From IMG/VR virus record IMGVR_UViG_3300044568_004364: a stretch of DNA of 64,000 nucleotides, one strand, 5' to 3'. A model generated the notes under the pieces. The model ran no database searches. It saw nothing but the letters and a program-made list of their open reading frames with translations, and was not told where the DNA came from. Shown here piece after piece: positions 1,844-52,367 of the stretch. Origin of the DNA: a virus. A program made the position numbers and the translations under genes. Numbering within the stretch: the first letter of the stretch is position 1; every line of letters starts with the position of its first letter.

Positions 1844-1853
1844 AATAAAAAAT

Positions 1854-2025: not shown

Positions 2026-2036
2026 ATGTGTTTTAT

Positions 2037-2282: not shown

Positions 2283-2288
2283 AATCTT

Positions 2289-2681
2289 TTATTCACATTT
2301 ACGTCCAACATAATCGCCTACAAATGTAGGAGAATCGCCATCATCAAATTCCAATATACGCTCACCAGCGTTTAGCTGTAATGGCAGTGCAGCCGCATCT
2401 TTCAGCGACATTTTCTTTGCACGCTTAGCGGCACGAGGCGCTTTTTTAGCAGCTCTTTCATTTCGCTTAGCTACCGCTGCTTTGAGTCGTTCAAGGTGTG
2501 CTGCTTTCTTAAGCTTAACTCCTTTGACCTTTGCTGCTTTTTTAGCAGCTCTTTCATTTCGCTTGGTTACAGCTGCTTTAAGGCGTTCACGACGTGCTGC
2601 TTTTTTAATTGCAATTGCCTTCTTTTTTTCGAGCTGTTCTGCCTTACGAGCAGCAGCTGTTTTTGATTTGATTTCCTTCAT
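2289..2681 (-). CDS. Lys/Ala/Arg-rich histone-H1-like early protein
   Basis: Internal repeat ERLKAAVxKRNERAAKKA twice; first gene behind an early promoter. Confidence 0.65.
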   Translation of the reverse strand: MKEIKSKTAAARKAEQLEKKKAIAIKKAARRERLKAAVTKRNERAAKKAAKVKGVKLKKAAHLERLKAAVAKRNERAAKKAPRAAKRAKKMSLKDAAALPLQLNAGERILEFDDGDSPTFVGDYVGRKCE

Positions 2682-2699
2682 AGTATTGGTTACGTGATT

Positions 2700-2756
2700 A
2701 TTATACACTAAAAAAGCACACTTGTAAAACTAAAAATGAAGAAAAATGCATTTTTT
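2700..2756 (-). promoter_or_regulatory. Early sigma70-type promoter with conserved upstream A/T block
   Basis: TTTACA-N17-TATAAT plus an AAAATGCATTTT block also seen at 48.4, 53.4 and 60.5 kb. Confidence 0.8.
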
Positions 2757-4494
2757 ATGATTTTTTTACGATTCGATCCATAAATGATGGTGAAAATAAG
2801 GTCTTATTGCTGCTGATAAACCCTTCGGCACGGCTGTCAAGAATGTATGTTATGCTCCAATCATCAGCGGAACGTGTTGTTCGTCCGCATGCTTGCTCGA
2901 GTGTTGATGCAGCTTCTCCTACATAAACATGATATGCAGTTTCATACCGCTTAGCGTTTAATGCACTACCCATGCTAGGATACGATATTTTCACGATGAT
3001 GTTAAAGCGCGCAGCATCACCTGATAGGTCAATTCCTGTTGTCAAGCTAGGTCCAATAAGAACCGCATCAGGCGCGCTATTATCCCAATCACTAAGTATG
3101 CTCATCTTTTCAACGGTGCCACGATATGGTACAAGCCTAAAGTAATGTCGTGATTCACGTGCGATCCTATCCATAATAACATTACTTGTGGTGTGTATAC
3201 AACCGCGTACACCTTTGTGTTCATCAAGTATACGATCAATCTCAGCAATGCATGCAGCCAATCCTTCATCCTGATTCTTATATGTTAGGTTAGCAACATC
3301 AAGACATACAATTGGACTGCGGCGACGATCCCAAGCGCTAGGTAAATTAAACACAACACTCTTTTCCTGTTCGCAGCCAAACCGCTGTATAAGCAGATGA
3401 GGTTGTAAGGTAGCGGACATATAGATTCTTACCTTGGAAAATTTCTTAAAGTGTCGCTGAAATAAGTGCGCATCATTAAGGTTATGATAACGCATTGCAC
3501 CATCTTGCGAACCGTCAACCACCATGCAATCATCGCCTGCTTCACTTATGATAGCTATATAATCTTCTACTTTACAATGGCGATCTTTAACGCCATCGCC
3601 CAATCGGAATAGCATTTTCACTTCACGCGGCAGCTTGTTCATTTGTTTTTTAAGCTTAGCAACATCTGCTTCATCAGCATCAAATAGTCGTGATATTGTA
3701 CCACCAATAAGTGTCGTTATTTGTTTCTTTAGCTCGCGTAATGAGCCTTCATATTCTGTTAATGCTTTTAAGTGAGCCTGTTTATCTTGACTGTTAGAGA
3801 GTCTAAATACCTTTCGTATTGCAGCTTCAACATCACGATATTGTATTTCTTCATAGTGAGCTGCAGACAGCATCATGTTTGTATTGCGCAGCCGCTCGAT
3901 ATAATCTAGCTCGACAGTGCATGCAAAATGATCTTCAATAATGTCAGGCAGCTTATGCGCTTCATCGCATATTACAAGATCACGTGGATGAAATGGTGGA
4001 TTAGCTCCAGATTCGCTCATCTTCTCGTAAACATAATTCATTTGCAGCAAGTAATAGCTGTAGTTAAAGATTGCGCGTGGACTCGCTTGTGCCGCAAGCC
4101 AACGCTGTAGGTATTCACAATTCTTTGCACACGGCATGCTTAGCGCCTCGCTGTTTGTCTTGCGCATAATCTTACACAATCCTAATGAGAACTTTTCGCC
4201 ATTCACGTGGCACTTATATGTATCAACGCCACAAACACTGGCAGCATCTCCATGAACATCACTATACTTTATGGTGTCTTCTTCATATTGTGCTTGCAGT
4301 GATTTTTCACTTGTCAATAAGTATGACAGCATGTTATGTTCTTGTGCTGCTCTCTTTGCGGTTTCTAGTGCAAGCAATCCTTTGCCACTACCTGTAGGTG
4401 CGCAAATAAAAATGTCGGTCTTGCCTTTGGCTATTGCGTCAAAGATTGCCTCAACTGTTGCAAGCTGCAACGGGCGGTATTCGAGTTTATGCAT
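2755..4494 (-). CDS. DinG/Rad3-like SF2 helicase
   Basis: APTGSGKG, DEAH, SAT and QACGRTTR motifs; Cys cluster after motif Ia. Confidence 0.85.
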   Translation of the reverse strand: MHKLEYRPLQLATVEAIFDAIAKGKTDIFICAPTGSGKGLLALETAKRAAQEHNMLSYLLTSEKSLQAQYEEDTIKYSDVHGDAASVCGVDTYKCHVNGEKFSLGLCKIMRKTNSEALSMPCAKNCEYLQRWLAAQASPRAIFNYSYYLLQMNYVYEKMSESGANPPFHPRDLVICDEAHKLPDIIEDHFACTVELDYIERLRNTNMMLSAAHYEEIQYRDVEAAIRKVFRLSNSQDKQAHLKALTEYEGSLRELKKQITTLIGGTISRLFDADEADVAKLKKQMNKLPREVKMLFRLGDGVKDRHCKVEDYIAIISEAGDDCMVVDGSQDGAMRYHNLNDAHLFQRHFKKFSKVRIYMSATLQPHLLIQRFGCEQEKSVVFNLPSAWDRRRSPIVCLDVANLTYKNQDEGLAACIAEIDRILDEHKGVRGCIHTTSNVIMDRIARESRHYFRLVPYRGTVEKMSILSDWDNSAPDAVLIGPSLTTGIDLSGDAARFNIIVKISYPSMGSALNAKRYETAYHVYVGEAASTLEQACGRTTRSADDWSITYILDSRAEGFISSNKTLFSPSFMDRIVKKS

Positions 4495-4536
4495 AAAATT
4501 ATTATAACATAAACTAGAAGAATGTAAATAAAAAAG

Positions 4537-4818
4537 TTACTTTTCGTGCAAGATATCAATAATACGCTTTTCTTCAGCCTTTAATGTTTCATATTCAACT
4601 CCTAGTTTTTTAGAGTCGGTATTAACTTTAAAAATACCATTGCTTGTCTCAAAGCCACCGCGATCTTCAATTTGAGATACGAGTTCTTTAAGACGTAGTT
4701 TAATCTTAACCAATCGTGAACCATATTCGCGCTTATCGGCGCTGTCTAGCGATTCGTTAATCATAGTGATTTCTTCAGGCGTAAAATAACTCCAAGATTT
4801 AGTAGATGACTCGCTCAT
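4537..4818 (-). CDS. Hypothetical protein
   Basis: ORF in operon. Confidence 0.6.
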   Translation of the reverse strand: MSESSTKSWSYFTPEEITMINESLDSADKREYGSRLVKIKLRLKELVSQIEDRGGFETSNGIFKVNTDSKKLGVEYETLKAEEKRIIDILHEK

Positions 4819-4828
4819 ACCATATTAT

Positions 4829-6298
4829 TTATTTTATTTTCATGCCAACTCGCACTGCATCAAACAGCGCAGTTGTATCTTTAAAGCTGCTTGGCACACC
4901 TTTTTTAAATGTTGCCATATCATTTGCTTTTGCAGCATCTCGCAATTTTGTTGAACTCATACCTGTTGCATCATCAGAGTCAGGATCGCGTTCAGTGTTA
5001 CTTACAACAGTAATACCGTCAACAAAATGATACTTATTGCTGCCGTTATAACGATTTAGGAGTTCTGTAAATCCTTCAACACGGTCACTGCCACATACAA
5101 GTGTTAATGCAGTATAACCTTTCTTATGTAGGTATACCACAGCATTAAGAACTGTTTTGATGTTAGGATCCTCTACAATATTCTTTGCATACTTTGGAAA
5201 AATCTTACGTAAAAAATCCATCTTAACTTCATAAGGCAACGGATTCTTTTTGGGATCTTGTGTTTGTGAAGAAAAGATTAGAAACTTTCGTCCAGCAGCA
5301 ACCTGCTCTAGTTTCTTAAAGAGGCTTTCGTGTCCAGTATTTGGTGGCTGAAAACGTCCAAACACCATTACTATTTCTTTCTTTTGTGCTTCAGCCAAAC
5401 GATCTTTAACCTTACTTGCTTTGAATGCTGGAGTAGTTACTTTAATATCTCTCCCGTTTATGGTAAGTACCAATCCTTCAATTTCAGGACCTAGCTTAAA
5501 CTTATCAAGGATTGACTCGTGATCCAATATGTATTCTGCAACTTCATCTTTAACACTCTGTATAATTGCACGTAGGTTTGCCTTAGCTTCACGATCATCT
5601 CGCTTAAGCGATTTTAGAGTCTCTTTAGCTTCTTTGCCCAAGCTAAGAATAGGATCAATCATGCCAGAGATATCAATGTCGCCTTTCATTGAAAGCGAAG
5701 GACTCATGACGCGTATGCGTTCATTTGAAGTGGCTATAATATCAGAAAGTATTCTCTCTTCATCTGGATGCGGAGCACCGTTGGAAGAATATACAACAGC
5801 ATGCGGAAATAGTGTTAGGTGCGAGCCCAACTTATTCTTATCATACTTTACAGTTACAAATGTAATACCATCATCATCCAATGCTGCCATCGGATTATAG
5901 AAAATTTCTGTAATAACTTTAACATCATTTGGTACAGCCTTCATTGCAGCCGAACTCATGATGTCATCAAACAAGTTATCATATTGCTGTGCTCTTAGGA
6001 GTGTCTCACCAGATGAGCCGCGTCCTTGTGCATATGTTGAGAATGCGCCACGATCAAAGACTGGTCCGCTGCGTGAACTCTCAAAAAACGGTTTGCCGTT
6101 TGCGTCGCGTCCAAAGCGTGCACCCAATCCATCAATCTTTAATGCAACCTTTAGGTTCTTTAGCTTGCCCCGCATTGCACCTGATATGCTGCGTACAAAT
6201 TCAATAAATTCAAGGTCGTTCATCTTTTGCAGATGCAACATATTTTGACGCGTTGTAGCGACAACCTCTTCAGTTAAGTATCTTTTAAATGATAACAT
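4829..6298 (-). CDS. Ligase-fold nucleotidyltransferase domain fused to a T4-like cytidyltransferase domain
   Basis: KIDG, EGLVL and KV motifs; C-terminal FGRFQPPNTGH, GSDR, MSSTKLR; start MLSFKRYLTEE. Confidence 0.75.
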   Translation of the reverse strand: MLSFKRYLTEEVVATTRQNMLHLQKMNDLEFIEFVRSISGAMRGKLKNLKVALKIDGLGARFGRDANGKPFFESSRSGPVFDRGAFSTYAQGRGSSGETLLRAQQYDNLFDDIMSSAAMKAVPNDVKVITEIFYNPMAALDDDGITFVTVKYDKNKLGSHLTLFPHAVVYSSNGAPHPDEERILSDIIATSNERIRVMSPSLSMKGDIDISGMIDPILSLGKEAKETLKSLKRDDREAKANLRAIIQSVKDEVAEYILDHESILDKFKLGPEIEGLVLTINGRDIKVTTPAFKASKVKDRLAEAQKKEIVMVFGRFQPPNTGHESLFKKLEQVAAGRKFLIFSSQTQDPKKNPLPYEVKMDFLRKIFPKYAKNIVEDPNIKTVLNAVVYLHKKGYTALTLVCGSDRVEGFTELLNRYNGSNKYHFVDGITVVSNTERDPDSDDATGMSSTKLRDAAKANDMATFKKGVPSSFKDTTALFDAVRVGMKIK

Positions 6299-6299
6299 T

Positions 6300-7400
6300 T
6301 TATTTGTATCCTTTGTAATATTCTGCACGCATATCATCAATAGCAGCACGGTCATATTGTGCTCCAATGATTTCGGTAAGTTTTAAGAATGCTGCCATCT
6401 TTTCGGCATTATCTCGTTCAGCATCACCACGATATAATCCTTGTGCGCCTTTTTCAAATAATATATTTGCAAATGCATTGATTAATCGTGTTTGTTCTGC
6501 TGGTGCAATATATTTCTTAATGAGTTCCGCTGCGCCAATAAACGAATCCATCATCTTCATATCCGCATCTGATGGCGTACGCTCAAAGAGTACTTTAAAG
6601 ATAACTTTAAGATCCGTAATATATGTTGATTCACTTGTTGGTATTTCACGATAGACATATAATCCATCCTGCATCATGTGTTTACCTACGCCATCTAGGA
6701 CTGGTGCTATTTTGGTGCGCAATCCATGCTGTACACTAAATGCAAGATCAGATGCTTTAATTTTCGTAGGTGTTTCTTTCTTACCTTTAAGAATGATAAT
6801 ATCACGCAGTGTTTTTGCAGATGCTGCTCTCATAATGTATTTATGAAACACACCTTTAATACCTGCTGTAATATCATTCCATGCAGATGAATGCGAGAAC
6901 ATGCTCCATGCTGTTGGTTTGCCATAAGCAAAGTCAACAAGTTCCATATCTACTTGAATGTTAATGCCAAACTCTGGGAAAGCCCAAAGCGTAATATATT
7001 GCCCCGCGCTTTTCTTAAATCCAATGAGTGAAGCATCACCAAAAGTTTTACCAGTTATGGCTTTAAGAAACTCGCCAAGGTTTTCATCTTGTATCTTATC
7101 AACCTGAGTATCTACATCGCCTACTGTATTCTTATACTTAGTAAATTCGGCTGTAGGAATTGCGCGGTTAAAAAAGTGGAATGCGCTGCCGCTAAGAAAC
7201 TCCTTGCTCTTAAAGAGTTCGCCACTCCATAATGGTAGTCCATACTTTTTCTTGTATGCTTTGTTAACTGCATCTAGTGTGCGGTCAATTTGCACCGTTA
7301 CACTATCACGGTTAATCTTTGTTAGGTCAATGCGATCTGCACCTTGGTCGCCCAACATTAAATTTCCGCCTTCAAGAATATATTGTTTAAATGATTTCAT
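6300..7400 (-). CDS. Pol-beta-superfamily nucleotidyltransferase-like protein
   Basis: SGS...GDVD...QVD motif; start MKSFKQYILE; late promoter at 7437-7444. Confidence 0.65.
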   Translation of the reverse strand: MKSFKQYILEGGNLMLGDQGADRIDLTKINRDSVTVQIDRTLDAVNKAYKKKYGLPLWSGELFKSKEFLSGSAFHFFNRAIPTAEFTKYKNTVGDVDTQVDKIQDENLGEFLKAITGKTFGDASLIGFKKSAGQYITLWAFPEFGINIQVDMELVDFAYGKPTAWSMFSHSSAWNDITAGIKGVFHKYIMRAASAKTLRDIIILKGKKETPTKIKASDLAFSVQHGLRTKIAPVLDGVGKHMMQDGLYVYREIPTSESTYITDLKVIFKVLFERTPSDADMKMMDSFIGAAELIKKYIAPAEQTRLINAFANILFEKGAQGLYRGDAERDNAEKMAAFLKLTEIIGAQYDRAAIDDMRAEYYKGYK

Positions 7401-7460
7401 GTGATTTTGTAGCCAATAACTTTACTCGTAATAATCTATTTATAATAGATGCAACTTAAA

Positions 7461-7549
7461 TGGCGGAAGCAGAGGGACTCGAACCCCCGAGGGCTTTATA
7501 GGCCCCAGCTGTTTTCAAGACAGTGTCCTCGACCAGCCGGACTACTTCC
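7461..7549 (-). tRNA. tRNA-Ser(TGA)
   Basis: Cloverleaf, long variable arm, GCCA end. Confidence 0.95.
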
Positions 7550-7558
7550 ATAAAATTT

Positions 7559-7635
7559 TGGTACACAGGGTGGGACTCGAACCCACAAAACCTTGCTTCT
7601 AAGGCAAGTACGTAAACCAATTCCGTCACCTGTGC
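7559..7635 (-). tRNA. tRNA-Leu(TAG) with short variable arm
   Basis: Loop CTTAGAA, CCA end. Confidence 0.9.
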
Positions 7636-7637
7636 AT

Positions 7638-7957
7638 TGGTGGAGACGACGGGAGTTGAACCCGTGTCCATGACGTGTGCGATTATACAATCTACAACTT
7701 ATTCTCATTTATTCAGACGAGACTCTTAGACACTTATCGTTGTGTCACGACAGCGTTATTCACAATGCTGTACAAATAGATACCGTTCGTGGTATCAACT
7801 ATCCTATGCCGTGCGAATGACAATATAGGAGTCATGTCATTCGACTCACTTAAGCAGCGAGAGCAAGTGTATTTTTGCCGTTTAGTTTTTTGACGAAGGG
7901 AGTCACCCGTGTGTTGCAATATAATCTCTCATGTCATGTCGAAACCATGACATCCCC
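7638..7957 (-). ncRNA. ssrA: tmRNA
   Basis: 5' GGGGATG...TTCGAC, 3' GGGTTCAACTCCC...CTCCACCA, tag frame GKNTLALAA* at 7850-7879. Confidence 0.93.
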
Positions 7958-7964
7958 ATTAAAA

Positions 7965-8528
7965 TTAATTATTTCGATTTTTCCAAACTTTTGCCGCGCG
8001 GAAAAGATGTGCTCCAACTTCATCATGCAGACGATCATCAAATCCCATTCCACCAAACCCGCCATAAATCATATAGTTTGATAGTGTGAAAAACAATTCT
8101 TCCAATTCATCTTCATCTATATCTTCTGCAGCTGCCATTATTTTACGAACAAGTGGATATGTTGGAGTTTTAAGAGCTTCATCAATTGTTTCTTCAACAA
8201 GATCTACTTTCTGATTTTTTTCAAAAGGAACTACGGTTGTATAGTTTCCAGCTTTTACACGTATGTTTACCAGTTTCCCAGGATGAGTTTTTGAATCCAT
8301 TGCGTCATCTGTCGCAATAACAGTATATGCTTTTGAGATGTCTACACCTTTTCCTGGGATTTTTAGATTTGCTTTAAAAGAGTCGCCCTTCTTAATGTCT
8401 TTTGCAATTTTAGTGTTGGACATTTCTTGGAGCTCAACTGTTTCATCTAATTGAGTGCATCCTGTTAAGATCTTTGTGGCCGCAGCTATAAGCGGATCGT
8501 TTTTAATGTTTGTGAAGTTTTCTTTCAT
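7965..8528 (-). CDS. Hypothetical late protein
   Basis: N-terminus ENFTNIKNDPL shared with the neighbouring gene. Confidence 0.7.
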   Translation of the reverse strand: MKENFTNIKNDPLIAAATKILTGCTQLDETVELQEMSNTKIAKDIKKGDSFKANLKIPGKGVDISKAYTVIATDDAMDSKTHPGKLVNIRVKAGNYTTVVPFEKNQKVDLVEETIDEALKTPTYPLVRKIMAAAEDIDEDELEELFFTLSNYMIYGGFGGMGFDDRLHDEVGAHLFRAAKVWKNRNN

Positions 8529-8536
8529 ATCTGTAT

Positions 8537-8827
8537 TTATTTATTTGGTCTTTTAGAAAAACGTTCTGCTGCTTTTTTAAGAAATAGCGCAGTTTCAATA
8601 TAATCATCATCTCCGTCGCGTTGGCCATTCCATTGAGTCATATATTCAAGACCATATAACAAATCTTCAAATTCCTTGGCGTCAAGCTTTGTAATTCCAG
8701 ATAGTAATTTAACTGCAGCTGGTGTTTTTGCTATACGTGAATCAGCTTCATGCAATTGACTGCCTATGATTTTTGCGGCGGCGGCTACAAGCGGATCGTT
8801 TTTAATGTTTGTAAAGTTTTCAGTCAT
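8537..8827 (-). CDS. Hypothetical late protein, partial paralog of 7965-8528
   Basis: Shared N-terminus; TATAAATA at 8841-8848. Confidence 0.7.
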   Translation of the reverse strand: MTENFTNIKNDPLVAAAAKIIGSQLHEADSRIAKTPAAVKLLSGITKLDAKEFEDLLYGLEYMTQWNGQRDGDDDYIETALFLKKAAERFSKRPNK

Positions 8828-8853
8828 ATTGTTATTTATCTATTTATAAAAAT

Positions 8854-8927
8854 TGGTAGCCCATGCTGGTATCGAACCAACTTCTCACGGGTCAAAGCCG
8901 TGTGCATTACCTTTATGCTAATGGGCA
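8854..8927 (-). tRNA. tRNA-Gln(TTG)
   Basis: Cloverleaf, CCA. Confidence 0.93.
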
Positions 8928-8929
8928 AT

Positions 8930-9004
8930 TGGAGTTGCGTGTGTGAATCGAACACACCAAGACGAGATTTGCAATCTCGCGCCTAACCATTTGGCTTACG
9001 CAAC
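8930..9004 (-). tRNA. tRNA-Cys(GCA)
   Basis: Cloverleaf, TCCA end. Confidence 0.93.
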
Positions 9005-9009
9005 AAAAA

Positions 9010-9099
9010 TGGCGGAGACAGCAGGATTTGAACCTGCGCAACCGATCAAGGTTGACTACTGTTTAGCAAACAGCTACATTACCACTCTGTCATATCTCC
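9010..9099 (-). tRNA. tRNA-Ser(GCT)
   Basis: Cloverleaf, long variable arm. Confidence 0.93.
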
Positions 9100-9102
9100 G
9101 TA

Positions 9103-9176
9103 TGGTAAGGGATGAAGGTAACGCTCCCTCGTATATTGCGTGTAAAGCAATCGTTCTACTTTTGAACTAATCCCCC
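9103..9176 (-). tRNA. tRNA-Val(TAC)
   Basis: Cloverleaf with non-canonical T loop AGCGTTA. Confidence 0.85.
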
Positions 9177-9276
9177 ATTATAAAAATTTGAAGGCCCGTT
9201 AACATCAACACTTTGGAGATATTGACATGCGAGTTCAACCGACGGGCCAAGCGGTTTAGACACCCTCTCGCAAAAA

Positions 9277-9288
9277 TGGTGCACTCTC
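9277..9288 (-). pseudogene. 3' fragment of disrupted tRNA-Arg(ACG)
   Basis: GAGAGTGCACCA pairs with the GCACTCT acceptor at 10279-10285. Confidence 0.8.
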
Positions 9289-9344
9289 AATTCATCAGTT
9301 TATTATATATTATGTACATTTATTTTAAATTATATAATACAAAA

Positions 9345-9419
9345 TGGTGGCCTGTTGAGGAATCGAACCTCAATTTGGAGTTTCGTAAACTCTCGTCTTA
9401 TCCATTGGACCAACAGGCC
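9345..9419 (-). tRNA. tRNA-Arg(ACG), intact copy inside the HNH insertion
   Basis: GGCCTGT/ACAGGCC+ACCA, loop TTACGAA. Confidence 0.9.
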
Positions 9420-9424
9420 TTTTT

Positions 9425-10198
9425 TTATTTATGTCTTCCAAATTTCCATCCATCAGGAGGTAATTCATTTTTTTCAATACGTGCAGATTTTGTTCCATTG
9501 TTAATCCAAACAGTATCAACACTTGAAAATTTCATATTACCAGAATCAATTTGTTTACGCATTCGAATTTTAGCCGAATCAGAAAGTTTTTTTCTAGTTT
9601 TTTTATCTAGTGTTTTACCTTTTCTATTTTTTATTTTTAATAAATGAAGACATTCAGATGAGCACGTTTTATATGTCTTAGAACATTTAAGCTTTAAAAA
9701 AGTACAATTACATATAACACATGTAAAAATTATTTCTATATTTTTCCACTTATTTCTTCCTAAAATCCATCCTTCTGGTATTTTGTCTTCTTTTAATATT
9801 TTTTTATTTTCTTGTAATTCAATATTGCACATCCAACGAGTTCCATATTGTGAATTGCACTCACCACTTTGAGAAATTTTCATACGTTTTGATGCCAATT
9901 TAGAGTGATGTTTTCGAATTTCTTCATACAGACGAGAATTCTTAATATAGGATATACTGCGCTCTTCACATCGCATCGCCATCATATGGCATGCATGAAT
10001 TGTTTGACTATTCTTATGAATCTTATAAAGAAGGATGTGGGCGATCCAATGTTCTCTTCCAGTTAAAACTACTAGATTAGAAGTATCATCAGATCCGCCC
10101 ATTGATTTCATCAAGATATGGTGCTTTTCAGTATATCCAGTTGCCGGATTATTTTGTCGATATGAAATTAGATTATCGTAAATACGTTGGTAGTTCAT
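9425..10198 (-). CDS. HNH homing endonuclease
   Basis: MNYQRIYDNLI...EKHHI...GGSD..NLV.LT.REH..AH; WINNG-type C-terminal repeats; late promoter at 10204-10211. Confidence 0.9.
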   Translation of the reverse strand: MNYQRIYDNLISYRQNNPATGYTEKHHILMKSMGGSDDTSNLVVLTGREHWIAHILLYKIHKNSQTIHACHMMAMRCEERSISYIKNSRLYEEIRKHHSKLASKRMKISQSGECNSQYGTRWMCNIELQENKKILKEDKIPEGWILGRNKWKNIEIIFTCVICNCTFLKLKCSKTYKTCSSECLHLLKIKNRKGKTLDKKTRKKLSDSAKIRMRKQIDSGNMKFSSVDTVWINNGTKSARIEKNELPPDGWKFGRHK

Positions 10199-10226
10199 AA
10201 ATGTATTTATACAAATGTGAACTTTA

Positions 10227-10285
10227 CGAACCCCGGACCTCACGGTTCGTAGCCGTGTGCTCTGATCCAGCTGAGCTAAGAGTGC
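10227..10285 (-). pseudogene. 5' part of disrupted tRNA-Arg(ACG), ending at GGTTCG
   Basis: GCACTCTTAGCTCAGCTGGATCAGAGCACACGGCTACGAACCGTGAGGTCCGGGGTTCG followed by unrelated DNA. Confidence 0.88.
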
Positions 10286-10342
10286 ATAAAAAAAAGACTG
10301 CAAGATGCAGCCTCTTTCCGTTAAAGTTATTCTTGTTAAGAT

Positions 10343-11035
10343 TTAAAATTTTGCGGCAACTTGTACTGCTTTAGCAATATCTTTGAATTTATTGTTATCA
10401 TCTGCTTTAATTAGCACACCTTCAGAACTAAATGAAGAATATTTTGACCAAGGCGTACTGCCATCACCTGTGTTTATGAGACCAGATGGTAACTTGACAA
10501 ATCTCTTTGCACCATCTTTATAAACTACGCAACCAGAACCACAATAGATCATGTCATTAACTGGCTGACCGTTTACTGCTTCAGCATCTTTATTATTTGC
10601 TTTAAGACCGCCGTCAATCATTGGCTCGCCAATACGATCTTCATTTGCAGCTAAAAAGCTATCATAATTGTGTGGTCCCTTTTTAGTCCAAACTGTAATA
10701 TTTGGATCAGATTGGCCACTTGCTTCGTGTAGCCCAGGCATTGCCAAAATAGCTTTCTTAAGATCACCAAGTTTAACCTTAGCACTAAAACCATCTTTAT
10801 CAATTAATCCACCCTTTACAGTCTTGTCTTTATATACAAGTTCGGAACCGTCAAAGTAAAGATTTTTTGAACCGCCAGTAGCAGCTTTAATCTTTGGATC
10901 CTTCACAAGATGCGTAATGATTTCAGTTTCACTCTCAAAGTCAGAGAGTGTTGAAGCGTCATTGAGTGTATATTCTTTCACTGCTGCTTCAGATAGCAAG
11001 AAATTCTTTGCGATGTTAATTAGACCGTCTTTCAT
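10343..11035 (-). CDS. Hypothetical late protein
   Basis: Start MKDGLINIAK behind TATAAATA at 11050-11057. Confidence 0.7.
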   Translation of the reverse strand: MKDGLINIAKNFLLSEAAVKEYTLNDASTLSDFESETEIITHLVKDPKIKAATGGSKNLYFDGSELVYKDKTVKGGLIDKDGFSAKVKLGDLKKAILAMPGLHEASGQSDPNITVWTKKGPHNYDSFLAANEDRIGEPMIDGGLKANNKDAEAVNGQPVNDMIYCGSGCVVYKDGAKRFVKLPSGLINTGDGSTPWSKYSSFSSEGVLIKADDNNKFKDIAKAVQVAAKF

Positions 11036-11069
11036 AATAGTTATATGTTTATTTATAATAATTGATTTT

Positions 11070-11145
11070 TGGCACGGAGAGTGAGAATCGAACTCACCCA
11101 ACAAGATTTGGAGTCTCGTTCGCCAGCCTTGGGACATGCCTCCGC
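11070..11145 (-). tRNA. tRNA-Trp(CCA)
   Basis: Loop CTCCAAA, GCCA end, irregular D arm. Confidence 0.85.
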
Positions 11146-11166
11146 ATAATCATATTTATAATAAAA

Positions 11167-11243
11167 TGGTACGCCCACTCGGATTCTAACCGAGGATCTA
11201 TCCATTATGAGTGGATTGCTTTGGAACGCTAAGCTATAGGCGT
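11167..11243 (-). tRNA. tRNA(CAT), probably Ile2
   Basis: Loop CTCATAA; 5' end ACGCCTATAGCT resembles the Ile(GAT) gene. Confidence 0.8.
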
Positions 11244-11253
11244 ATTTGAAAAT

Positions 11254-11333
11254 TGGTACTCCTGATGGGGGATTGAACCCATGACCTCCCACTTATAAGG
11301 CGGGTGCTCTGACCACGACTGAGCTACAGGAGC
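11254..11333 (-). tRNA. tRNA-Ile(TAT)
   Basis: Loop CTTATAA, ACCA end, bulged T stem. Confidence 0.8.
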
Positions 11334-11337
11334 ATTA

Positions 11338-11412
11338 TGGTCCACACTGACCGTAACGATCGGTCCTCTCAAGATTTTCAGTCTTGTGCTAATCCATCTC
11401 AGCTAAGTGTGG
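11338..11412 (-). tRNA. tRNA-Phe(GAA)
   Basis: Loop CTGAAAA, T loop ATCGTTA. Confidence 0.87.
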
Positions 11413-11419
11413 AGAAAGT

Positions 11420-11494
11420 TGGTAGACGTTCTGGGTAATGCTCCCAGTTCTCATGGTTAAAAGCCATGTGCTTCACTATTAAAGCTTAACGTCC
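11420..11494 (-). tRNA. tRNA-Lys(TTT)
   Basis: Loop CTTTTAA, T loop AGCATTA. Confidence 0.87.
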
Positions 11495-11498
11495 GTTA

Positions 11499-11575
11499 TG
11501 GTACGACTAGAAGGATTTGAACCTTCGACCCCAGCTTTATCAAAGCTGTGCTCTGACCATCTGAGCTATAGTCGT
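11499..11575 (-). tRNA. tRNA-Ile(GAT)
   Basis: Cloverleaf, CCA. Confidence 0.93.
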
Positions 11576-11585
11576 ATTAAAAAAG

Positions 11586-11658
11586 TGGAGATGACAGAAC
11601 TCGAATCTGCAACATCCTGCGTGCAAGGCAAGCGCTCTACCAATTGAGCTACATCCCC
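11586..11658 (-). tRNA. tRNA-Ala(TGC)
   Basis: G3:U70 acceptor; CCA not fully encoded. Confidence 0.9.
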
Positions 11659-11667
11659 TTTGAAGTT

Positions 11668-11746
11668 TGGTGGTTGTGATAGGATTTGAACCTATATACT
11701 TAGACTTATGAAATCTACTTCTTACCAAGTCGAAATTCACACAACC
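11668..11746 (-). tRNA. tRNA-Met(CAT), elongator-like
   Basis: Loop TTCATAA, ACCA end. Confidence 0.85.
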
Positions 11747-11754
11747 ATTGAAAA

Positions 11755-11832
11755 TGGTCAGAGAGGCAGGATTTGAACCTGCGTTGTTCCTAGTTCCAAA
11801 CTAGGTGTGTTAGACCGCTCCACCACCCTCTG
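11755..11832 (-). tRNA. tRNA-Pro(TGG)
   Basis: Cloverleaf, CCA. Confidence 0.93.
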
Positions 11833-11845
11833 ATAAAAATTAAGT

Positions 11846-11929
11846 TGAAACACTTCTGCAAGATATACATACTCTTCGTCCGAAGACTTCAGCCATCACG
11901 CTGGTGGAAGAGCCCGTCCCTATGTTTCA
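11846..11929 (-). ncRNA. Candidate structured RNA (three-way junction, UUCG tetraloop)
   Basis: TGAAACA/TGTTTCA, GCTCTTC/GAAGAGT, GTC-TTCG-GAC. Confidence 0.5.
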
Positions 11930-11952
11930 TGAGCCCGTTTAGGTAAATTAGA

Positions 11953-12025
11953 ACTAGACTGTAGATTGAAGCCTACACTTCTCACGTACTGTCGTGAGGT
12001 CCTTAACGCTTAGACGAAGTCTAGT
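11953..12025 (-). ncRNA. Degenerate tRNA-like RNA with 8-bp acceptor
   Basis: ACTAGACT/AGTCTAGT, CTCACG/CGTGAG, TGTAG/CTACA. Confidence 0.5.
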
Positions 12026-12029
12026 AAAT

Positions 12030-12193
12030 TGGATGACACACGCTGAAGTTTGAGAGGCAGAAATTTGTTCAAGTATCCGGTCTTGTCGAGATATTGTTTT
12101 GTTTCGGTCTAAAAGACTTACTCCGTAAATCCGCACTCGCAGTCACCCTCTCTTATGGTCTCGTAAATTACATCAGCTAGACCGTCTGTGTCA
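12030..12193 (-). ncRNA. CCA-ended ~164-nt non-tRNA RNA
   Basis: TGACACA/TGTGTCA+TCCA, GCTGA/TCAGC, GAGAGG/CCTCTC. Confidence 0.55.
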
Positions 12194-12197
12194 AAAT

Positions 12198-12271
12198 TGG
12201 TACGCCATGTGGGAGTCGAACCCACGCCTCGAACTTGGAAGGATCACGTGCTACCGTAACACTTATAGCGC
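12198..12271 (-). tRNA. tRNA-Gly(TCC)
   Basis: Cloverleaf, CCA. Confidence 0.9.
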
Positions 12272-12280
12272 TTTTGAAAA

Positions 12281-12356
12281 TGGCTCCCGAGGCACGACTC
12301 GAACGTGCAACATCTGAGTTAACAGCTCAGCGCATCTACCATTGAGCTACTCGGGA
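12281..12356 (-). tRNA. tRNA-Asn(GTT)
   Basis: Cloverleaf, GCCA. Confidence 0.93.
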
Positions 12357-12365
12357 GTTGAAAAT

Positions 12366-12530
12366 TGGTATGTCCATAGCATTGCGGCCTACGACTCACT
12401 TAGGACTGAAGCTAGCTACTGAAGATCGTAGCGATCTTTAATTATGATACACTGACATTATCTTCAGCACGGAATTTCAAGCCTGTATGCATACACATAT
12501 GCACCTAACTCACCGAATAGTATCATAATT
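12366..12530 (-). ncRNA. CCA-ended ~165-nt multi-hairpin RNA
   Basis: 11-bp AATTATGATAC/GTATCATAATT stem, TGCATA/TATGCA, AAGATCG/CGATCTT, ends ATACCA. Confidence 0.5.
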
Positions 12531-12535
12531 GAAAT

Positions 12536-12612
12536 TGGAGCCTCCTATCCGACTTGAACGGATAACCTGCTCATTACAAATGAGCTGCTACTGCCAATTG
12601 AGCTAAGGAGGC
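12536..12612 (-). tRNA. tRNA-Thr(TGT)
   Basis: Cloverleaf, TCCA. Confidence 0.93.
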
Positions 12613-12623
12613 ATTAAAGAAAG

Positions 12624-12720
12624 TGGATTTGAGCAGTCAGGTTGTCATCCTGATAGTGACTAGCCAGAGAATGGAGGAGTTGAACCTCCTTTTACTTAGT
12701 CCGAGTTCTCGCTGCTCAAA
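12624..12720 (-). ncRNA. CCA-ended RNA with an internal T arm
   Basis: TTTGAGCAG/CTGCTCAAA+TCCA; GGAGG-TTCAACT-CCTCC. Confidence 0.6.
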
Positions 12721-12722
12721 AA

Positions 12723-12798
12723 TGGTCCGCGGTCATGGACTTGCACCATATTCGCTGCCGTCACAAGGCAGGACATTACTACATATGCTAACCTCGGA
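12723..12798 (-). tRNA. tRNA-His(GTG)
   Basis: Loop TTGTGAC; U-1:A73 instead of G-1:C73. Confidence 0.85.
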
Positions 12799-12804
12799 AT
12801 AAAA

Positions 12805-12893
12805 TGGTGTACGCGGTTGGAATCGAACCAACGATGTTTCTGATGAGCAGGGTTACAGTCTGCCGCCACACAACCAACAGTAGCCTCACGTAC
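12805..12893 (-). tRNA. tRNA-Tyr(GTA)
   Basis: Cloverleaf, long variable arm. Confidence 0.9.
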
Positions 12894-12903
12894 TTTTGAA
12901 AAT

Positions 12904-12978
12904 TGGTACTGCCACGGGGAGTTGAACCCCGCTCTAATGGTTGAAAACCATTTGTCCTAACCGATAGACGATGGCAGC
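12904..12978 (-). tRNA. tRNA-Glu(TTC)
   Basis: Cloverleaf, CCA. Confidence 0.93.
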
Positions 12979-12992
12979 GTTGGAAAATTAGA

Positions 12993-13127
12993 TGAACATC
13001 AAGCGAAGCAAAATACGGAATCGAACCGTCCCTCCCGTTTTCACGACGGGCGCGCAAGCCATTACACAATAATTGCCATCTTTGACTCAAGGCCTGCAAG
13101 CCTCTCTTCTCAGAGTCTCGATGTTCA
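12993..13127 (-). ncRNA. RNA with a tRNA-like domain nested in an outer stem
   Basis: TGAACATCGAG/CTTGATGTTCA encloses a cloverleaf at 13007-13077. Confidence 0.6.
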
Positions 13128-13154
13128 CTTAACGAGAGTTGCAGCTCTCAAAAT

Positions 13155-13233
13155 TGGTCTCCTAGGTGAGAGTCGAACTCACAATATCACCGCCCCTTGA
13201 AGGCAGTCGCTTTGCCAGTTTGCGTACACGGAG
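13155..13233 (-). tRNA. tRNA-Leu(CAA) with short variable arm
   Basis: Loop TTCAAGG, ACCA end, two acceptor mismatches. Confidence 0.8.
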
Positions 13234-13479
13234 GATTGAAAAATTGTACGGTGTTTTCTTTGGATTCAGATCACCGAAATTCTGAATAATCATTGCATTC
13301 GTAATAGCTGCAGCGTTAACCACAGTTACAATAGTAACGAAATTAGTACTGCCACGGGGGAGTTGAAATGGGAGTGTACGCAGAACCTTCTACTGCAACA
13401 TGGGTTTGTAAGCCACTATCAACGCACGATACACTGGCATGCTGTTGGTATTCTCTCAATATGAATATTGAGATTAAAT

Positions 13480-13554
13480 TGGTTGCGGCGGGTGGGATTC
13501 GAACCCACGTGCACGGCTTATGAGACCGTTGAGTTACCTCTACTCTACCCCGCG
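13480..13554 (-). tRNA. Initiator-like tRNA-Met(CAT)
   Basis: CGCGGGG start, C1:A72 mismatch, AACCA end. Confidence 0.88.
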
Positions 13555-44087: not shown

Positions 44088-46010
44088 TCAAATTTCATAG
44101 TTTATATATTGGTGCTCTAAGAGCGTATTGTTGAGAATTGACTTTAATTCAAAACCGCCGACGAATGGAACATTACCACCAATTGTGTTTATAATATTGC
44201 GTGGAACATTACTCAATGCTTTATGCAAAGGGTCATCATCGACGTGATCTGCAACATTCTTTTTTAAAGCAACACGCAAAAAATCAACATCACGCCACAC
44301 CGTGTTCCAAACACAAACTTCAATTGATTGCTTTGTCATATTCATAATCCTTTATCGCAATGCTAACTGAGTCATAAACTGAGCCATAAACTGAGTCTCT
44401 AACTGAGTCATAAACTGAGCCCCAAACTGAGACATAAACTGAGCCATGTACTGAGTCACGGACTGAGTTATTAACTGAGTCCCAAACTGAGCCGCTAACT
44501 GAGTTACAAACTGAGCTATATACTTCCTTTTCAATATTCATATTCTTGTATTGCAATGTCAACAGTGTTCCTAACTGAGTTACGAACTGAGCCCCAAACT
44601 GAGTTCCAAACTGAGTTAATAACTGAGATATTAACTGAGTCATAAACTGCACTATATATTTCCTTTTCAATATTCATACTCCCTTAGTGTAATATTAACA
44701 GAGTTCCTAACTGAGTCACTAACTGAGATACCAGCTGAGTTCCTAACTGAGTTCCTAACTGAGTCATGAACTGAGCCCCAAACTGAGACCCAAACTGAGC
44801 CATAAACTGAGCCATGTACTGAGTCACGGACTGAGTTATTAACTGAGTCATCTATTTCCTTTTCAATATTCATACTCTTCTATTTCACTCCGCAAATTGT
44901 CATCAACTGAGTCCCAAACTGAGACAAAAACTGAGTCATAAACTGAGTTATAAACTGAGTTATAAACTGAGTTATAAACTAAGTTACGAACTGAGCTACG
45001 AACTGAGCTACGAACTGAGTCATAAACTGCACTATATATTTCCTTTTCAATATTCATACTCCCTTAGTGTAATATTAACAGAGCTCTCAACTGAGCCATA
45101 AACTGAGACATAAGCTGAGACATTAACTGAGTCATGTACTGAGTTCCTAACTGAGTCCCAAACTGAGCCATGTACTGAGTCACTAACTGAGTCATAGACT
45201 GAGTCATAGACTGAGTCATAAACTATCTTACGAAGTGAGACATCAACTGAGCGATTAACTGAGTCATCGACTGAATAATATATTTCCTTTTTAATATCCA
45301 TACTCTGCTATGTGTGCTGCTAAATTATTGTACCGCCCAGCATCTCCTATAGAATCCTGAAACGAGTTACGAACACTATTATAAAGCGATATTGTTGGTA
45401 GGGTACCTGTTATTCTATCACCATTATCCAAAACATACTCCCATGTTGCAGACCATAGCTCTTGCCGCAAATCTTGTTTAATATCCATATTCTTTTATTT
45501 CACTCTTTATATTAATACCAACAGAAATGCCAACTGAACCAGCAACAGGCTGAGTGACCTTGCTACCAATCGTGGTGATAGGTAATATATGAACAGAATT
45601 ATATACTGTATCAAAAACTGAGCTACTAACTGATCTATTAACTGAGTTATTAACTGAGCCATCTATTTCCTTTTTAATATTCGTATTCATATTCTTTTAT
45701 TGTAATGTCAACAGTGTTCCAAACTGAGTTACGAACTGAGCCGCTAACTAAGTTCCAAACTGAGCTACGAACTGAGCTACGAACTGAGTCATAAACTGCA
45801 CTATATACTTCCTTTTCAATATTCATATTCTTTTACTGCAGCGTTAACAGAGCTCTCAACAGAGCTCTCAACTGAGCCATAAACTGAGATATCAACTGAG
45901 TCATAAACTGAGTTATTAACTGAGTCCCAAACTGAGCCGCTAACTGATTTTTCGACTGAGTTATTAACTGAGTCATAAACTGAGGTATATATTACCTTTT
46001 CAATATTCAT
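44088..46010 (-). repeat. Array of ~10 chained SVxx microprotein ORFs (45816-46010, 45674-45826, 45478-45690, 45291-45488, 45047-45301, 44863-45057, 44667-44873, 44531-44677, 44320-44541, 44088-44345)
   Basis: 12-bp unit TCAGTTnnnRnC; EYEY-stop overlaps MNIEKE start. Confidence 0.88.
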
Positions 46011-46074: not shown

Positions 46075-46407
46075 TTAGTCGCGAACTGCTCGCATGTTTT
46101 GTGCAAAGTGATCATACTCTTGTTGAATGCCAACTTCCCATACACCAGGAGGCATAGCGATAGCATCGTGACGATTAGCATGCACGCAACGCACCTGAGT
46201 AGGTTTAGAGTTGCGAATGAATGTACGATCGCCAGAGCGAAACACTTTAGTGCCTGCTACCATATCAACGACATGGTGATTGCCAGTCGTCTCACTGTCT
46301 GCAATAATATGCAGATCGTTGTTAGTAGGCTTAATTTCAACTGCATCTGCTGGCAGTTCTGCGGGGAACAACATGGCTTCGCCATGGAGGATTACGTTTG
46401 GTTTCAT
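46075..46407 (-). CDS. Conserved His-motif partner of DUF6745-like proteins
   Basis: HGE, ETTGNHH, H..H, PPG.W.V..QQEY...VRD. Confidence 0.7.
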   Translation of the reverse strand: MKPNVILHGEAMLFPAELPADAVEIKPTNNDLHIIADSETTGNHHVVDMVAGTKVFRSGDRTFIRNSKPTQVRCVHANRHDAIAMPPGVWEVGIQQEYDHFAQNMRAVRD

Positions 46408-46448
46408 ATCTATATTATAGTTTACTGTTTGTTAATTGCTAGGATTAT

Positions 46449-47429
46449 TTATGCGATTGTAGAGATGATCATATCACGTCCACCTAGACGTTGTTTGATT
46501 GCACTCACTAGATCTTTACAGTCTGGCGATACACCTTCAAAGTGGAAGATACTAGTAGTCTGATTGACCATGCTGAGATATGGCGCACTAGACAAGCCAT
46601 CAAAGATTGCTTCCATATCCCAGAGCTCGTATTGACTCTTGACCCACCACTCATATTCAGCACCAGTATAGTTCTGATAGGTATCAAGCAATTTGCCTAA
46701 GCTCTTGAAGCGTTCGATACCAGCCTTGCGCACAAACTCAGCTTTCACGTCAGCGTTTTGAATAGTCTTGTAGTACTCAAGATCCAACTTCTCTTCAGGA
46801 GTCACGGCAATATACTCTGGCACACGAACACCGTTGAGGGAATAGACCTTAAGGTCACCACGACCAGCATAAGTTAGCGCAGCTCCGCCATCACGATGCA
46901 AGCGATTCTCTTCATTGAGGAAGATTTCAGTAGGCTTCTCGCACACAATGGTATATTCTTCCATAGGGTAGATACAGCCAAGTTGCGCCGTTGCTTCCCA
47001 TGTCTTATACTTAGCGTAGAGCTCAGCGTCTACCTCCACCCCAACTTCTTCAAACATAAAGTCATAGAAGGAGAAGGTTGCAGCGAAGAATGAGCCACTC
47101 TGCCATGGGAGTTGTGCAGCGGGAATATCATACTTCTTAGTATTGCCATTGAAGACACTATCAAGCTCAGCATTCAAATTTTCAAAGCTTACATTAAAGT
47201 TGCTCAAGAGGTGACACGCAGCCCAAGCCTCCAATGGATTGTCAAGAATAATCAGCGGCACATCTACAGGACGGTTAATGAGCGCGCGATACTGATCAAC
47301 TGTCTTCTTGGTTCGAGTAGGATCAAGACGAGCAGTATCAGTACCAACCGCAATCCATTTTGCGACATATTCGGGCATCTTAGCTTCTTGCTCAGGAGTG
47401 AGCTTATCAATTTTTTGTTTTTCTGACAT
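46449..47429 (-). CDS. DUF6745-like protein
   Basis: KLTPEQEA...W; CEKP...RLHRDGGAA.TY...LNGVRVP...NA.VK. Confidence 0.7.
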   Translation of the reverse strand: MSEKQKIDKLTPEQEAKMPEYVAKWIAVGTDTARLDPTRTKKTVDQYRALINRPVDVPLIILDNPLEAWAACHLLSNFNVSFENLNAELDSVFNGNTKKYDIPAAQLPWQSGSFFAATFSFYDFMFEEVGVEVDAELYAKYKTWEATAQLGCIYPMEEYTIVCEKPTEIFLNEENRLHRDGGAALTYAGRGDLKVYSLNGVRVPEYIAVTPEEKLDLEYYKTIQNADVKAEFVRKAGIERFKSLGKLLDTYQNYTGAEYEWWVKSQYELWDMEAIFDGLSSAPYLSMVNQTTSIFHFEGVSPDCKDLVSAIKQRLGGRDMIISTIA

Positions 47430-47507
47430 AGTATGTTTATTTGTGAGAGTTTTCTGCATCGCGAAGAATGAAGATTAATACGAAAATTAGTATGATTGCA
47501 ATCATAG

Positions 47508-47699
47508 TTAGTATGCTTCAGAGTTGCTCATGCTTTTAAGATTAATACTTGGACGCTTGAGATATGTTTTGTTACGAATGTATTGATTAGCCTTTGCTTT
47601 TGGCTTGAATTGTACATCAGATACATCAACGCTTTTCACAGCTCCAAAACGGACTGACCAATTGCTTTTAACGACTTGTGTTTGTGTGTTTGTGTTCAT
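47508..47699 (-). CDS. Hypothetical early protein
   Basis: Behind the promoter at 47721-47749. Confidence 0.55.
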   Translation of the reverse strand: MNTNTQTQVVKSNWSVRFGAVKSVDVSDVQFKPKAKANQYIRNKTYLKRPSINLKSMSNSEAY

Positions 47700-48338
47700 A
47701 GTGATATTTGTTACAGATTTATTATATACGGTTAGTGTGAGTTTGTAAAATAAAAAATGAATCTTTTATCTTAGGAAATTTTGTCCCGGGAGATCACACG
47801 CGTGTGATCTCCCGGGACGAGGTAACCACACCTGAAATTTTATTTTCTCCAAGAGAAGCACATTCACGCAATCCTTGAAGATAACTTTCATAATTATTTT
47901 CGTTTAGGAAAGGATGCGCTGCTGAACCCAGTTCCAAGTAGCATATTCCGCTTGTAGAGTTCATCAGCAATTTGCCGCTCGATCCATGACTGTGATTTGA
48001 AAATGTTTGCTCCATACTTTGGTTGTTTGCGTTTGAATGTTAGCTTAATTTTTTGCAGGATTCGTCGGATCATATTATGCGCGTTGTTATTTTGTTAGGT
48101 GTTTTACTCCAATCATGTAGCATTCAGCTTTTGTATTTGCAAAGGCGCTAAGCTCAATTTCATTGCCATCTATGATGGTGATTTGCCATTGAGGCTTTCC
48201 GCCAATGACAGCTGCCGAATTTGAAACGGTGATTGTCATCGAGCCATAGGTGTTTGTGTAATATCCTCTCGATATCTTGTTTAAGTTAAGAGTAACGGTG
48301 TGGATATTCATAAACTGTGTGGTACTGGCTACAAGATT

Positions 48339-51067: not shown

Positions 51068-52053
51068 ATTTTTCCTTCGTTATAATTCTTCTTACTTCAA
51101 GAGCTATATCCCCACAAAGTATATTGTCAATTTTGAATCCTATCGAATCATATACGCTAGTGCTTATGTATGGTGTGGTTTGATCTGCTGCTGTTTGTCT
51201 ACATTCACTCTGTACACACTTCCACACATGCTCATACAGAGCTTCATTTATTGCGTATCCTATATTCATATTCTACTATTGTAGCGTTAACTGTGTTCAT
51301 AACTGAGTTCATAACTGAGTTCCAAACAGAGCGATGTATTGAGTTCCAAACTGAGATATCAACTGAGTCATAAACTGAGTTATTAACTGAGTCCCAAACT
51401 GAGCCGCTAACTGATTTTTCGACTGAGAGATCTATTTCCCGTTTAATATCCATATTCTTTCATTGTAGCGTTAACAGAGTTCTCAACTGAGCTCTCAACT
51501 AAGTTCCAAACTGAGCCATGTACTGAGCTCCAAACTGAGTTACTAACCGAGTCTCTAACTGAGCTACGAACAGAGACATGTACTGAGACATGTACTAAGC
51601 TATGTACTGAGTCCCAAACAGAGTCCCAAACAGAGTCCCAAACAGAGACCCCAACAGAGACCCCAACAGAGTTCCAAACAGAGACCCAAACAGATTTCAA
51701 TATTTTTTCTTCAGTAGTCATAATTATATTCTAGCATCTGCGCATTAACAGAGTCCCTAACAGAGACCCTAACAGAGTTCCAAACAGAGTTCCAAACAGA
51801 GACCCCAACAGAGTCCCAAACAGAGTTCCAAACAGAGTTCCCAACAGAGACCCCAACAGAGACCCCAACAGAGACCCAAACAGATTTCAATATTTTTTCT
51901 TCAGTAGTCATAATTATATTCTAACATTTGAGCATTAACAGAGTCCCTAACAGAGTCATAGACTGAGCCATGTACTGAGTCACTAACTGAGCCATAAACT
52001 GAGCCCCAAACAGAGACATTAACTGAGAGATTTATTTTATCGTTAATATTCAT
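51045..52053 (-). repeat. Second array of 5 chained SVxx microprotein ORFs (51901-52053, 51711-51911, 51443-51721, 51244-51453, 51045-51269)
   Basis: 12-bp unit TCWGTTnnnRnC with overlapping stop/start junctions. Confidence 0.88.
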
Positions 52054-52055
52054 AT

Positions 52056-52367
52056 TCAATCCCAGTTCCAGCGGTTACCACTTTTTGTTGGAGCGTCAAG
52101 CGGAATAGCGTCATAGTCGGCGACATTCAATGCATCGCGAGTTGCTGCACGATTCTTACTGTTATGCTCGTCCTTTGTGCTTTGATTAATATTAGTTGCA
52201 CGCTTATTGTCATGCGTATAGCAACGTGCCAATTCAATAAGCTTACGAGGCGTATATTCTTTGTAATCACTCCAGCTAAAATGGAGAACATTGAAGTTAC
52301 CGGAGTCGAGCTTGACTACTTTCCACTTGTTACGCTTAATGATTTGTATTGCTTCAGACGTGTTCAT
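52056..52367 (-). CDS. Hypothetical protein
   Basis: ORF in early operon. Confidence 0.6.
   Translation of the reverse strand: MNTSEAIQIIKRNKWKVVKLDSGNFNVLHFSWSDYKEYTPRKLIELARCYTHDNKRATNINQSTKDEHNSKNRAATRDALNVADYDAIPLDAPTKSGNRWNWD

Follow-up and report, generated by a model that had tools for sequence, protein, structure and literature searches.

The locus described here raises the question of why a row of mini-genes coding for xSVx repeats lies beside a DUF6745-like gene that has no repeat of its own. The initial annotation proposed that a variable tract, internal to many DUF6745-like proteins, had been externalised into interchangeable trans-acting subunits, leaving a scaffold, a metal-binding partner and a peptide library. 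The window, that is, the whole stretch of 64,000 nucleotides that was analysed, belongs to a 100,774-base IMG/VR virus record with an estimated completeness of about 51%. T4-like traits of the record are a PhoH gene and 23 tRNA genes, and those of its relatives are rIIB, Rnl1, ThyX and DNA ligase. Every gene around the pair and the array is carried by the minus strand (Table 1).

Table 1. Features of the locus, given as positions in the window
Feature	Position	Strand	Basis or remark
DUF6745 gene, tract-less form	46449-47459	-	336 aa; Pfam PF20530 and phrog_31813 matches
Partner gene	46075-46407	-	110 aa; partner profile, conserved His/Glu/Asp
Terminator-like hairpin and T-run	46054-46021	-	Terminator scan; between pair and array
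Promoter-like site TAGATA-17-TATAAT, weak	46061-46033	-	-10 is TATAAT in upper part of hairpin
Main array: nine overlapping mini-genes, eight with xSVx period-4 repeats	44320-46010	-	ORF/repeat scan
Second array: four SVxx mini-genes	51244-52059	-	3.8 kb upstream of pair
Lone SVxx mini-gene	1703-1900	-	44 kb from pair

The gene order first proposed was confirmed: the DUF6745 gene, identified by its Pfam match, and its partner with conserved His residues are separated by 41 nt and precede the main array, and a terminator-like hairpin with TATAAT in its apical part lies downstream of the partner stop codon (46075) and ahead of the start of the first array gene (46010). The terminator scan gave the hairpin 14 pairs with G-T allowed; its G+C-rich core, GCGAGGAG/CTCCTCGC, is followed by the T-run TTTTTTGTTGT. 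Promoter-like sites in the stretch numbered 5 versus 5.2 in shuffles and were thus not in excess. The best of them, TTTACA-17-TATAAT (11/12), lies at 47721-47749 (-), and a 63-aa ORF downstream of it (47508-47699, -) precedes the DUF6745 gene. Elsewhere in the window, ARAGORN called a tmRNA (tag GKNTLALAA*) and an overlapping permuted tmRNA at 7365-7957 (-), inside the tRNA block at 1939-13553 that holds the 23 tRNA genes.

Concerning the identity of the larger protein, sequence comparison makes the window gene a true DUF6745 member. Residues 157-252 match Pfam PF20530 with E=2.3e-8 and 34 bits, above the gathering score of 27 bits, and the Pfam assignment of the initial annotation therefore holds; a six-frame PF20530 search of the phage's own record gave 34.6 bits, and phrog_31813 was matched with E=1.8e-8. 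The relatedness is full-length, since the alignments to many homologs span residues 14-336 and so take in the N-terminal region that the Pfam model does not cover. One search returned 284 homologs with E<=0.001, and an exhaustive HMMER search 3358 relatives in the representative library. The AF2 model (pLDDT 95) is helical in its N-terminal part and alpha/beta in its C-terminal part. H188, K245, R250 and E308 were invariant in the first alignment of homologs; across 91 sequences, K245 and E308 are still invariant and H188 is near-invariant. In BFVD, the best viral fold match of the model was the DUF6745 protein of Microcystis phage Ma-LMM01 (E=9.4e-17).

Searches beyond the family gave little. 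PDB sequence profiles and Foldseek against the PDB returned no match for the DUF6745 protein, and the best hit of a VIA wide fold search (Z 4.4) was within noise. A search for longer fused forms of DUF6745 found none, and the long homologs that were scanned carried no informative extra domain. When the region and the two proteins were run through megablast and tblastn, none of 50,697 phage records matched. NCBIfam gave no match for either window protein, and PADLOC gave none for both window proteins and Ma-LMM01 gp174/gp175; the PADLOC matches of one tract-bearing homolog, P0238, stem from its low-complexity tract. Another tract-bearing homolog, P0136, had as its sole tblastn match in the phage record collection gene 38 of Mycobacterium phage prophiGD102-1 (MW584211.1, 16936-17808), a prophage of Mycobacterium abscessus.

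The firmest result of this study is that DUF6745 and a small beta protein rich in His, Asp and Glu form a conserved two-gene module, which is spread over many phage lineages, prophages and bacterial MAGs. With a profile built from 53 partner sequences out of the fetched loci, the partner was found on the same strand as DUF6745 in 81/85 phage loci and in all 20 bacterial MAG loci searched. It lay within 200 nt of DUF6745 in 67 of 80 phage loci, and was downstream in 64 and upstream in 16. The MAG hosts of the pair include Clostridia, Muribaculaceae, Melainabacteria, Saccharibacteria, Planctomycetota, Elusimicrobia and Marinacidobacterales.

The partner measures about 110 aa and carries the motifs H..GE, GNHH or GHxH, RH or HEEH, and EYD..R.V.D. 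H45, H80, D99 and D110 are invariant, H8, E39 and E97 are near-invariant, and the AF2 model (pLDDT 91) is a small all-beta protein. From the conserved His, Glu and Asp residues, metal binding by the partner is a fair guess. The window partner matches phrog_27831 weakly (E=2.8e-4), and 23 of the 53 partner homologs match the same family, with a best E of 2.1e-12. No Pfam family, PDB sequence match or Foldseek match was found for it, nor a cupin or other known metal-binding fold (best VIA Z 3.6, within noise), and the ESM Atlas returned only unnamed viral clusters. A Rosetta-stone fusion was ruled out, as no natural fusion of partner and DUF6745 was found in about 105 loci and 268 proteins.

Two observations concern the arrangement of the pair. 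Split pairs were found only in the clade with free arrays, and in the close relative L002/L003 a gene for a 387-aa DUF723 protein (10977-12140, opposite strand) lies between DUF6745 and partner, which looks like a selfish insertion that split the pair. One Marinacidobacterales MAG (L210, L214-L219, L222) holds at least eight near-identical, scattered pairs of partner and tract-bearing DUF6745, as if the pair were a rider on a multicopy mobile unit.

The internal tracts that the initial annotation ascribed to many DUF6745-like proteins do exist. A period-4 tract was present in 33 of 150 representatives (50% clustering, best 150 of the 3358-relative search), in 26 of the 67 distinct phage loci that could be called clearly, and in most bacterial MAG copies. 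The tract types are SV, QV, KV, NL, NI, QL, QI and AV, with units such as SQVx, DSVx, DKVx, DNLx, ENIx, SQIx, SQLx and SAVx. Alignment of the homologs places every tract at one and the same insertion site, after about residue 75-90, bounded by a helix ending near residue 90 and a conserved P[YW]xxG motif near residue 120; there the tract occupies a loop of the N-terminal helical part and runs for 3-68 units. The window protein itself lacks a tract, as had been stated. Its residues at this site (about 92-119; helix 92-103, then loop, in the AF2 model) amount to approximately 25 non-repeat residues that include one DSVF unit. Among its 120 nearest homologs (52-91% identical) no clear SV tract was found, and one homolog has a single SV pair four residues apart. 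A pentapeptide-repeat protein (PF00805) was considered and rejected because the period is 4, not 5, and because neither the mini-proteins nor the scanned long tract-bearing homologs gave a match to this Pfam family.

The units of the tract, [Q/N/S/K][V/I/L][R/G/W..][S/D/A/N], have two constant residues and two that vary far beyond synonymous sites. In both internal and free repeats, the hydrophobic residue is mostly followed by an NGG codon. Within internal tracts, Gly was coded by GGG in 96/99 cases versus 25% elsewhere in the same genes, and Arg by AGG/CGG in 136/150 cases versus 32% elsewhere in the same genes. Along the 12-nt unit, the within-tract entropy was 0.07, 0.09, 0.15, 0.04, 0.01, 0.12, 1.12, 0.65, 0.29, 0.58, 0.80 and 0.13 bits, and the profile of the free genes has the same shape. 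As the entropy at nucleotides 7, 8, 10 and 11 (0.58-1.12 bits) is several-fold above that at the third codon positions (0.12-0.29 bits), the variation is confined to four of the 12 nucleotides, namely the first two positions of two codons, and is several-fold above that of synonymous positions. The NGG rule was seen with hardly an exception in the internal tracts of L038-L085 and the free genes of L004-L074, with synonymous third positions frozen and first positions free. We read this pattern as the result of diversifying selection that acts on two exposed residues in each unit, with slippage or conversion keeping the units alike. It leaves a slight residual chance that a targeted mutator writes the variation; a diversity-generating retroelement as that mutator was rejected, because the adenines of the constant Q/N codons are invariant and no reverse transcriptase (RVT_1) was found in the 100-kb record, which is 51% complete.

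The free repeats of the window comprise thirteen xSVx period-4 mini-ORFs (eight in the main array, four in the second, one alone). The main-array genes code for 48-84 aa, the last for about 70 aa from its MNIE start, and the ninth member is non-repeat; the mini-proteins have an MNIEKE.. head and an ..EYEY tail. At the junctions, GAATATGAATATTGA codes both for the ..EYEY* end of one mini-gene and for the MNIE.. start of the next. These junctions are conserved at the DNA level in the main array of the window, in L006 (11239-16015) and in L002 (12842-19035), and relatives keep the termini around wholly non-repeat middles. The arrays of L006 and L002 consist mostly of non-repeat members that have only the MN[IF].. 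head and the ..[EK]Y[ED][YF] tail in common.

For the comparison of free and internal repeats, units were anchored on the hydrophobic residue (1158 internal and 736 free units). The internal units read [Q/N/S/K][V/I/L][R/G/W/E][S/D/A/N] and the free ones [S/Q][V/L/I][W/R/G/Y][D/N/S], with residue frequencies correlated at r=0.62, 0.94, 0.80 and 0.72 over the four positions. The window mini-proteins are 49-60% identical to SV-type internal tracts, and free mini-proteins occur in SV, QV and QL flavours in different phages, parallel to the internal types. At the level of sequence, free mini-proteins and internal tracts are thus the same kind of repeat, and in this clade of T4-like lake phages a three-turn helix has replaced the tract. 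The free mini-genes of the clade code for 50-95 aa and adjoin the module or are embedded in it. They separate the two genes of the pair in L005, L021 and L031, where they are SV-type, and in L006, where there are thirteen of them; they abut the pair in the window, L046, L012, L014, L032 and L043.

The free arrays go with tract-less genes, and the two forms of the repeat are nearly exclusive. From 80 viral loci and five metagenome loci, 67 remained after the removal of duplicates, truncated genes and borderline tracts. Two of these had both a tract and free genes, 24 a tract and no free genes, 22 free genes and no tract, and 19 neither (Fisher p=1.7e-4). The two exceptions are L061, whose repeat is an RLM-type mixed-period one and not xSVx-like, and L080; the first-pass free matches beside the tract-bearing genes of L050, L080 and L082 were period-2 repeats. 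With a mini-protein profile applied to whole records, no free arrays were detected in two complete tract-bearing genomes, and as a positive control the same profile detected the internal tracts of relatives. A DNA pattern scan of viral contigs with (TCAGT N7)x4 returned mostly unrelated perfect repeats rich in Thr, Glu and Asp.

The predicted co-occurrence of repeat-less homologs with free SVxx ORFs is borne out as an association, but a phylogenetically clustered one. In the tree of the C-terminal domain, nearly all free arrays fall into one 40-row clade (support 99), and independent contrasts were not significant (median p of 1, sign test), because two rows with different tract states seldom have different free-array states. 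The tract-bearing members inside the free-array clade (L038, L039, L051) have no free genes, and L074 represents a second, distant lineage in which a tract-less gene occurs with free QV-type arrays. The complete tract-less genomes G002 (230 kb) and G003 (297 kb) gave no free arrays with the same profile, and a scan of all 162 kb of Ma-LMM01 gave no period-4 genes. These three tract-less pairs without free repeats show that a tract-less gene needs no free arrays, and, since some complete genomes keep the pair with a tract neither in cis nor in trans, the tract is not essential.

How, then, are the arrays to be explained? We propose that the tract serves the core as a recognition or decoy surface and that the mini-proteins supply this surface in trans, a reading to which we give a little less than an even chance. 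The tract would be a diversifying surface acting with the conserved core, the mini-proteins would be exchangeable subunits that bring the variable surface to the DUF6745-partner core, and the target of the arms race would probably be a host factor met during phage DNA replication. The labels 'scaffold', 'metal-binding' and 'trans-acting' that had been attached to the pair and the mini-proteins denote putative roles. Externalisation of the tract is supported insofar as the free genes are the same repeat, are associated with tract-less genes and are embedded in the module; the independent contrasts, the three complete genomes without repeats and the many non-repeat array members do not favour it. 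A more specific form, which we consider rather unlikely, is split combinatorial recognition, in which a DUF6745-partner core active at replication would take any one of at least 12 helical mini-proteins with two residues per unit under diversifying selection; these specificities would make up a heritable library with which the phage meets fast-evolving host factors, and the fused forms of other phages would be the single-specificity version.

The main rival to the trans-subunit reading is that the mini-genes are independent offshoots, whose repeat DNA was copied from the DUF6745 gene or arose in parallel, and which form a family of small genes, early or middle, that expands by itself and acts alone. 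The position of the mini-genes near the pair would then reflect their place of origin and the hyperplastic nature of the region. SVxx genes found also 4 kb and 44 kb from the pair agree with such an origin, as do the long arrays in relatives, whose non-repeat members keep the same termini, the tract-less pairs that have no arrays at all, and the restriction of the association largely to one clade. Yet in four loci the pair is interrupted by inserted mini-genes, next to tract-bearing genes there are practically no free arrays, and L074 shows the same combination in a second lineage; we regard independent offshoots as somewhat unlikely.

Two further readings are less likely than the offshoots. 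By analogy with RiPPs, the repeats might be core peptides modified by the DUF6745 C-terminal domain, the His-rich partner or both, with enzyme and substrate fused in most lineages and split here. The invariant or near-invariant polar residues of DUF6745 (K245, E308, H188) and of the partner (H8/H45/H80/E97/D99) would suit an enzyme, fused and split layouts both occur, and the mini-genes stand in tandem rows with a conserved head and tail. This relation is nevertheless improbable, as the tract is inside a folded helical region and not a free tail, its units follow directly on one another with neither spacer nor cleavage motif, the neighbourhood shows no protease or exporter, no fold match to a peptide-modifying enzyme was found (BURP cyclase, Z only 2.4), and the pair persists without any repeat. 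Most improbable of all is that the 12-nt repeats act at the nucleic-acid level, as DNA or RNA, with the fixed GG of each unit as one conceivable means and the reading frames secondary, or that a targeted mutator such as a diversity-generating retroelement writes the variation. The GG is indeed kept even where it is synonymous, and only four of 12 nucleotides vary; against this, frames with conserved starts and stops are open in every lineage, the pattern is codon-phased, with first and second positions varying and the third quiet, and the invariant adenines and the reverse transcriptase search described above point the same way.

In a literature search, no paper was found that names DUF6745, PF20530 or tetrapeptide repeats in phage. 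The gene is a plain DUF6745 member, and together with its partner it corresponds to gp174/gp175 of Ma-LMM01. The papers searched describe neither the obligate partner, nor the hypervariable tract at a single site and its codon signature, nor the series of fused, split and absent forms. DUF6745 and its partner form a widespread, expressed module of phages and bacterial MAG contigs without a solved fold relative. The tetrapeptide tract is among the clearest signs of codon-level diversification visible by plain counting, and diversification of this sort is usually the mark of an interface between host and parasite. With its fused, split and absent forms, the repeat offers a natural experiment on its own role, and the trans-subunit idea, if true, would amount to a novel means by which a virus maintains a specificity library.

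Among known systems, the tract-bearing DUF6745 proteins of phages, prophages and MAGs (for example P0238, P0166, L055-L057, L208, L214-L219) belong to the same family and have the same adjacent partner, and the identity of their SV-type tracts to the window mini-proteins was given above; they differ in carrying the repeat in cis (3-68 units) with no free mini-genes nearby. Diversity-generating retroelements resemble the present case in concentrating variation at a small number of codon positions in an accessory gene of a phage, whereas here there is no reverse transcriptase in the record, no adenine-specific pattern and no identified template repeat. The repeat-variable diresidues of TAL effectors and the leucine-rich repeats of lamprey VLRs likewise combine a constant framework with two fast-varying residues per unit and a variable unit number. 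The likeness is an analogy, as the unit here is only 4 aa long and there is no relation in sequence or fold. In burpitide and borosin pathways, enzyme and substrate occur fused or split.

The same two-gene module as in the window is present in Microcystis phage Ma-LMM01, where a six-frame profile search matched gp174 (BAF36265.1) to PF20530 with E=1.2e-15, and gp175 matched the partner profile with E=4.3e-14. Like the window protein, gp174 is tract-less, but it has a non-repeat insert of about 60 aa at the tract site, its partner lies just upstream, and its 162-kb genome has no period-4 mini-gene anywhere. The pair is located not beside mini-gene arrays but inside a DNA polymerase/UDG cluster, with uracil-DNA glycosylase on one side and DNA polymerase and exonuclease genes on the other. 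In the Ma-LMM01 infection transcriptome, gp174 and gp175 are middle genes of cluster 2, subclass B5, rising from 0 to about 11.6-12.6 log2 units, and the same middle class contains UDG, UvsW, UvsX and a RecD-like helicase (PMC5780444, main text and supplementary file 4). Tract-bearing copies in smaller phages have genes for primase, exonuclease, ligase, replication initiator, DnaB, RecT and SbcC as neighbours. From the middle transcription in Ma-LMM01 and these gene neighbourhoods it follows that the module is expressed, and in the company of DNA replication and repair genes. Cultured Ma-LMM01 with Microcystis, a host rich in defence genes, is one setting in which the core that it has in common with the window can be tested.
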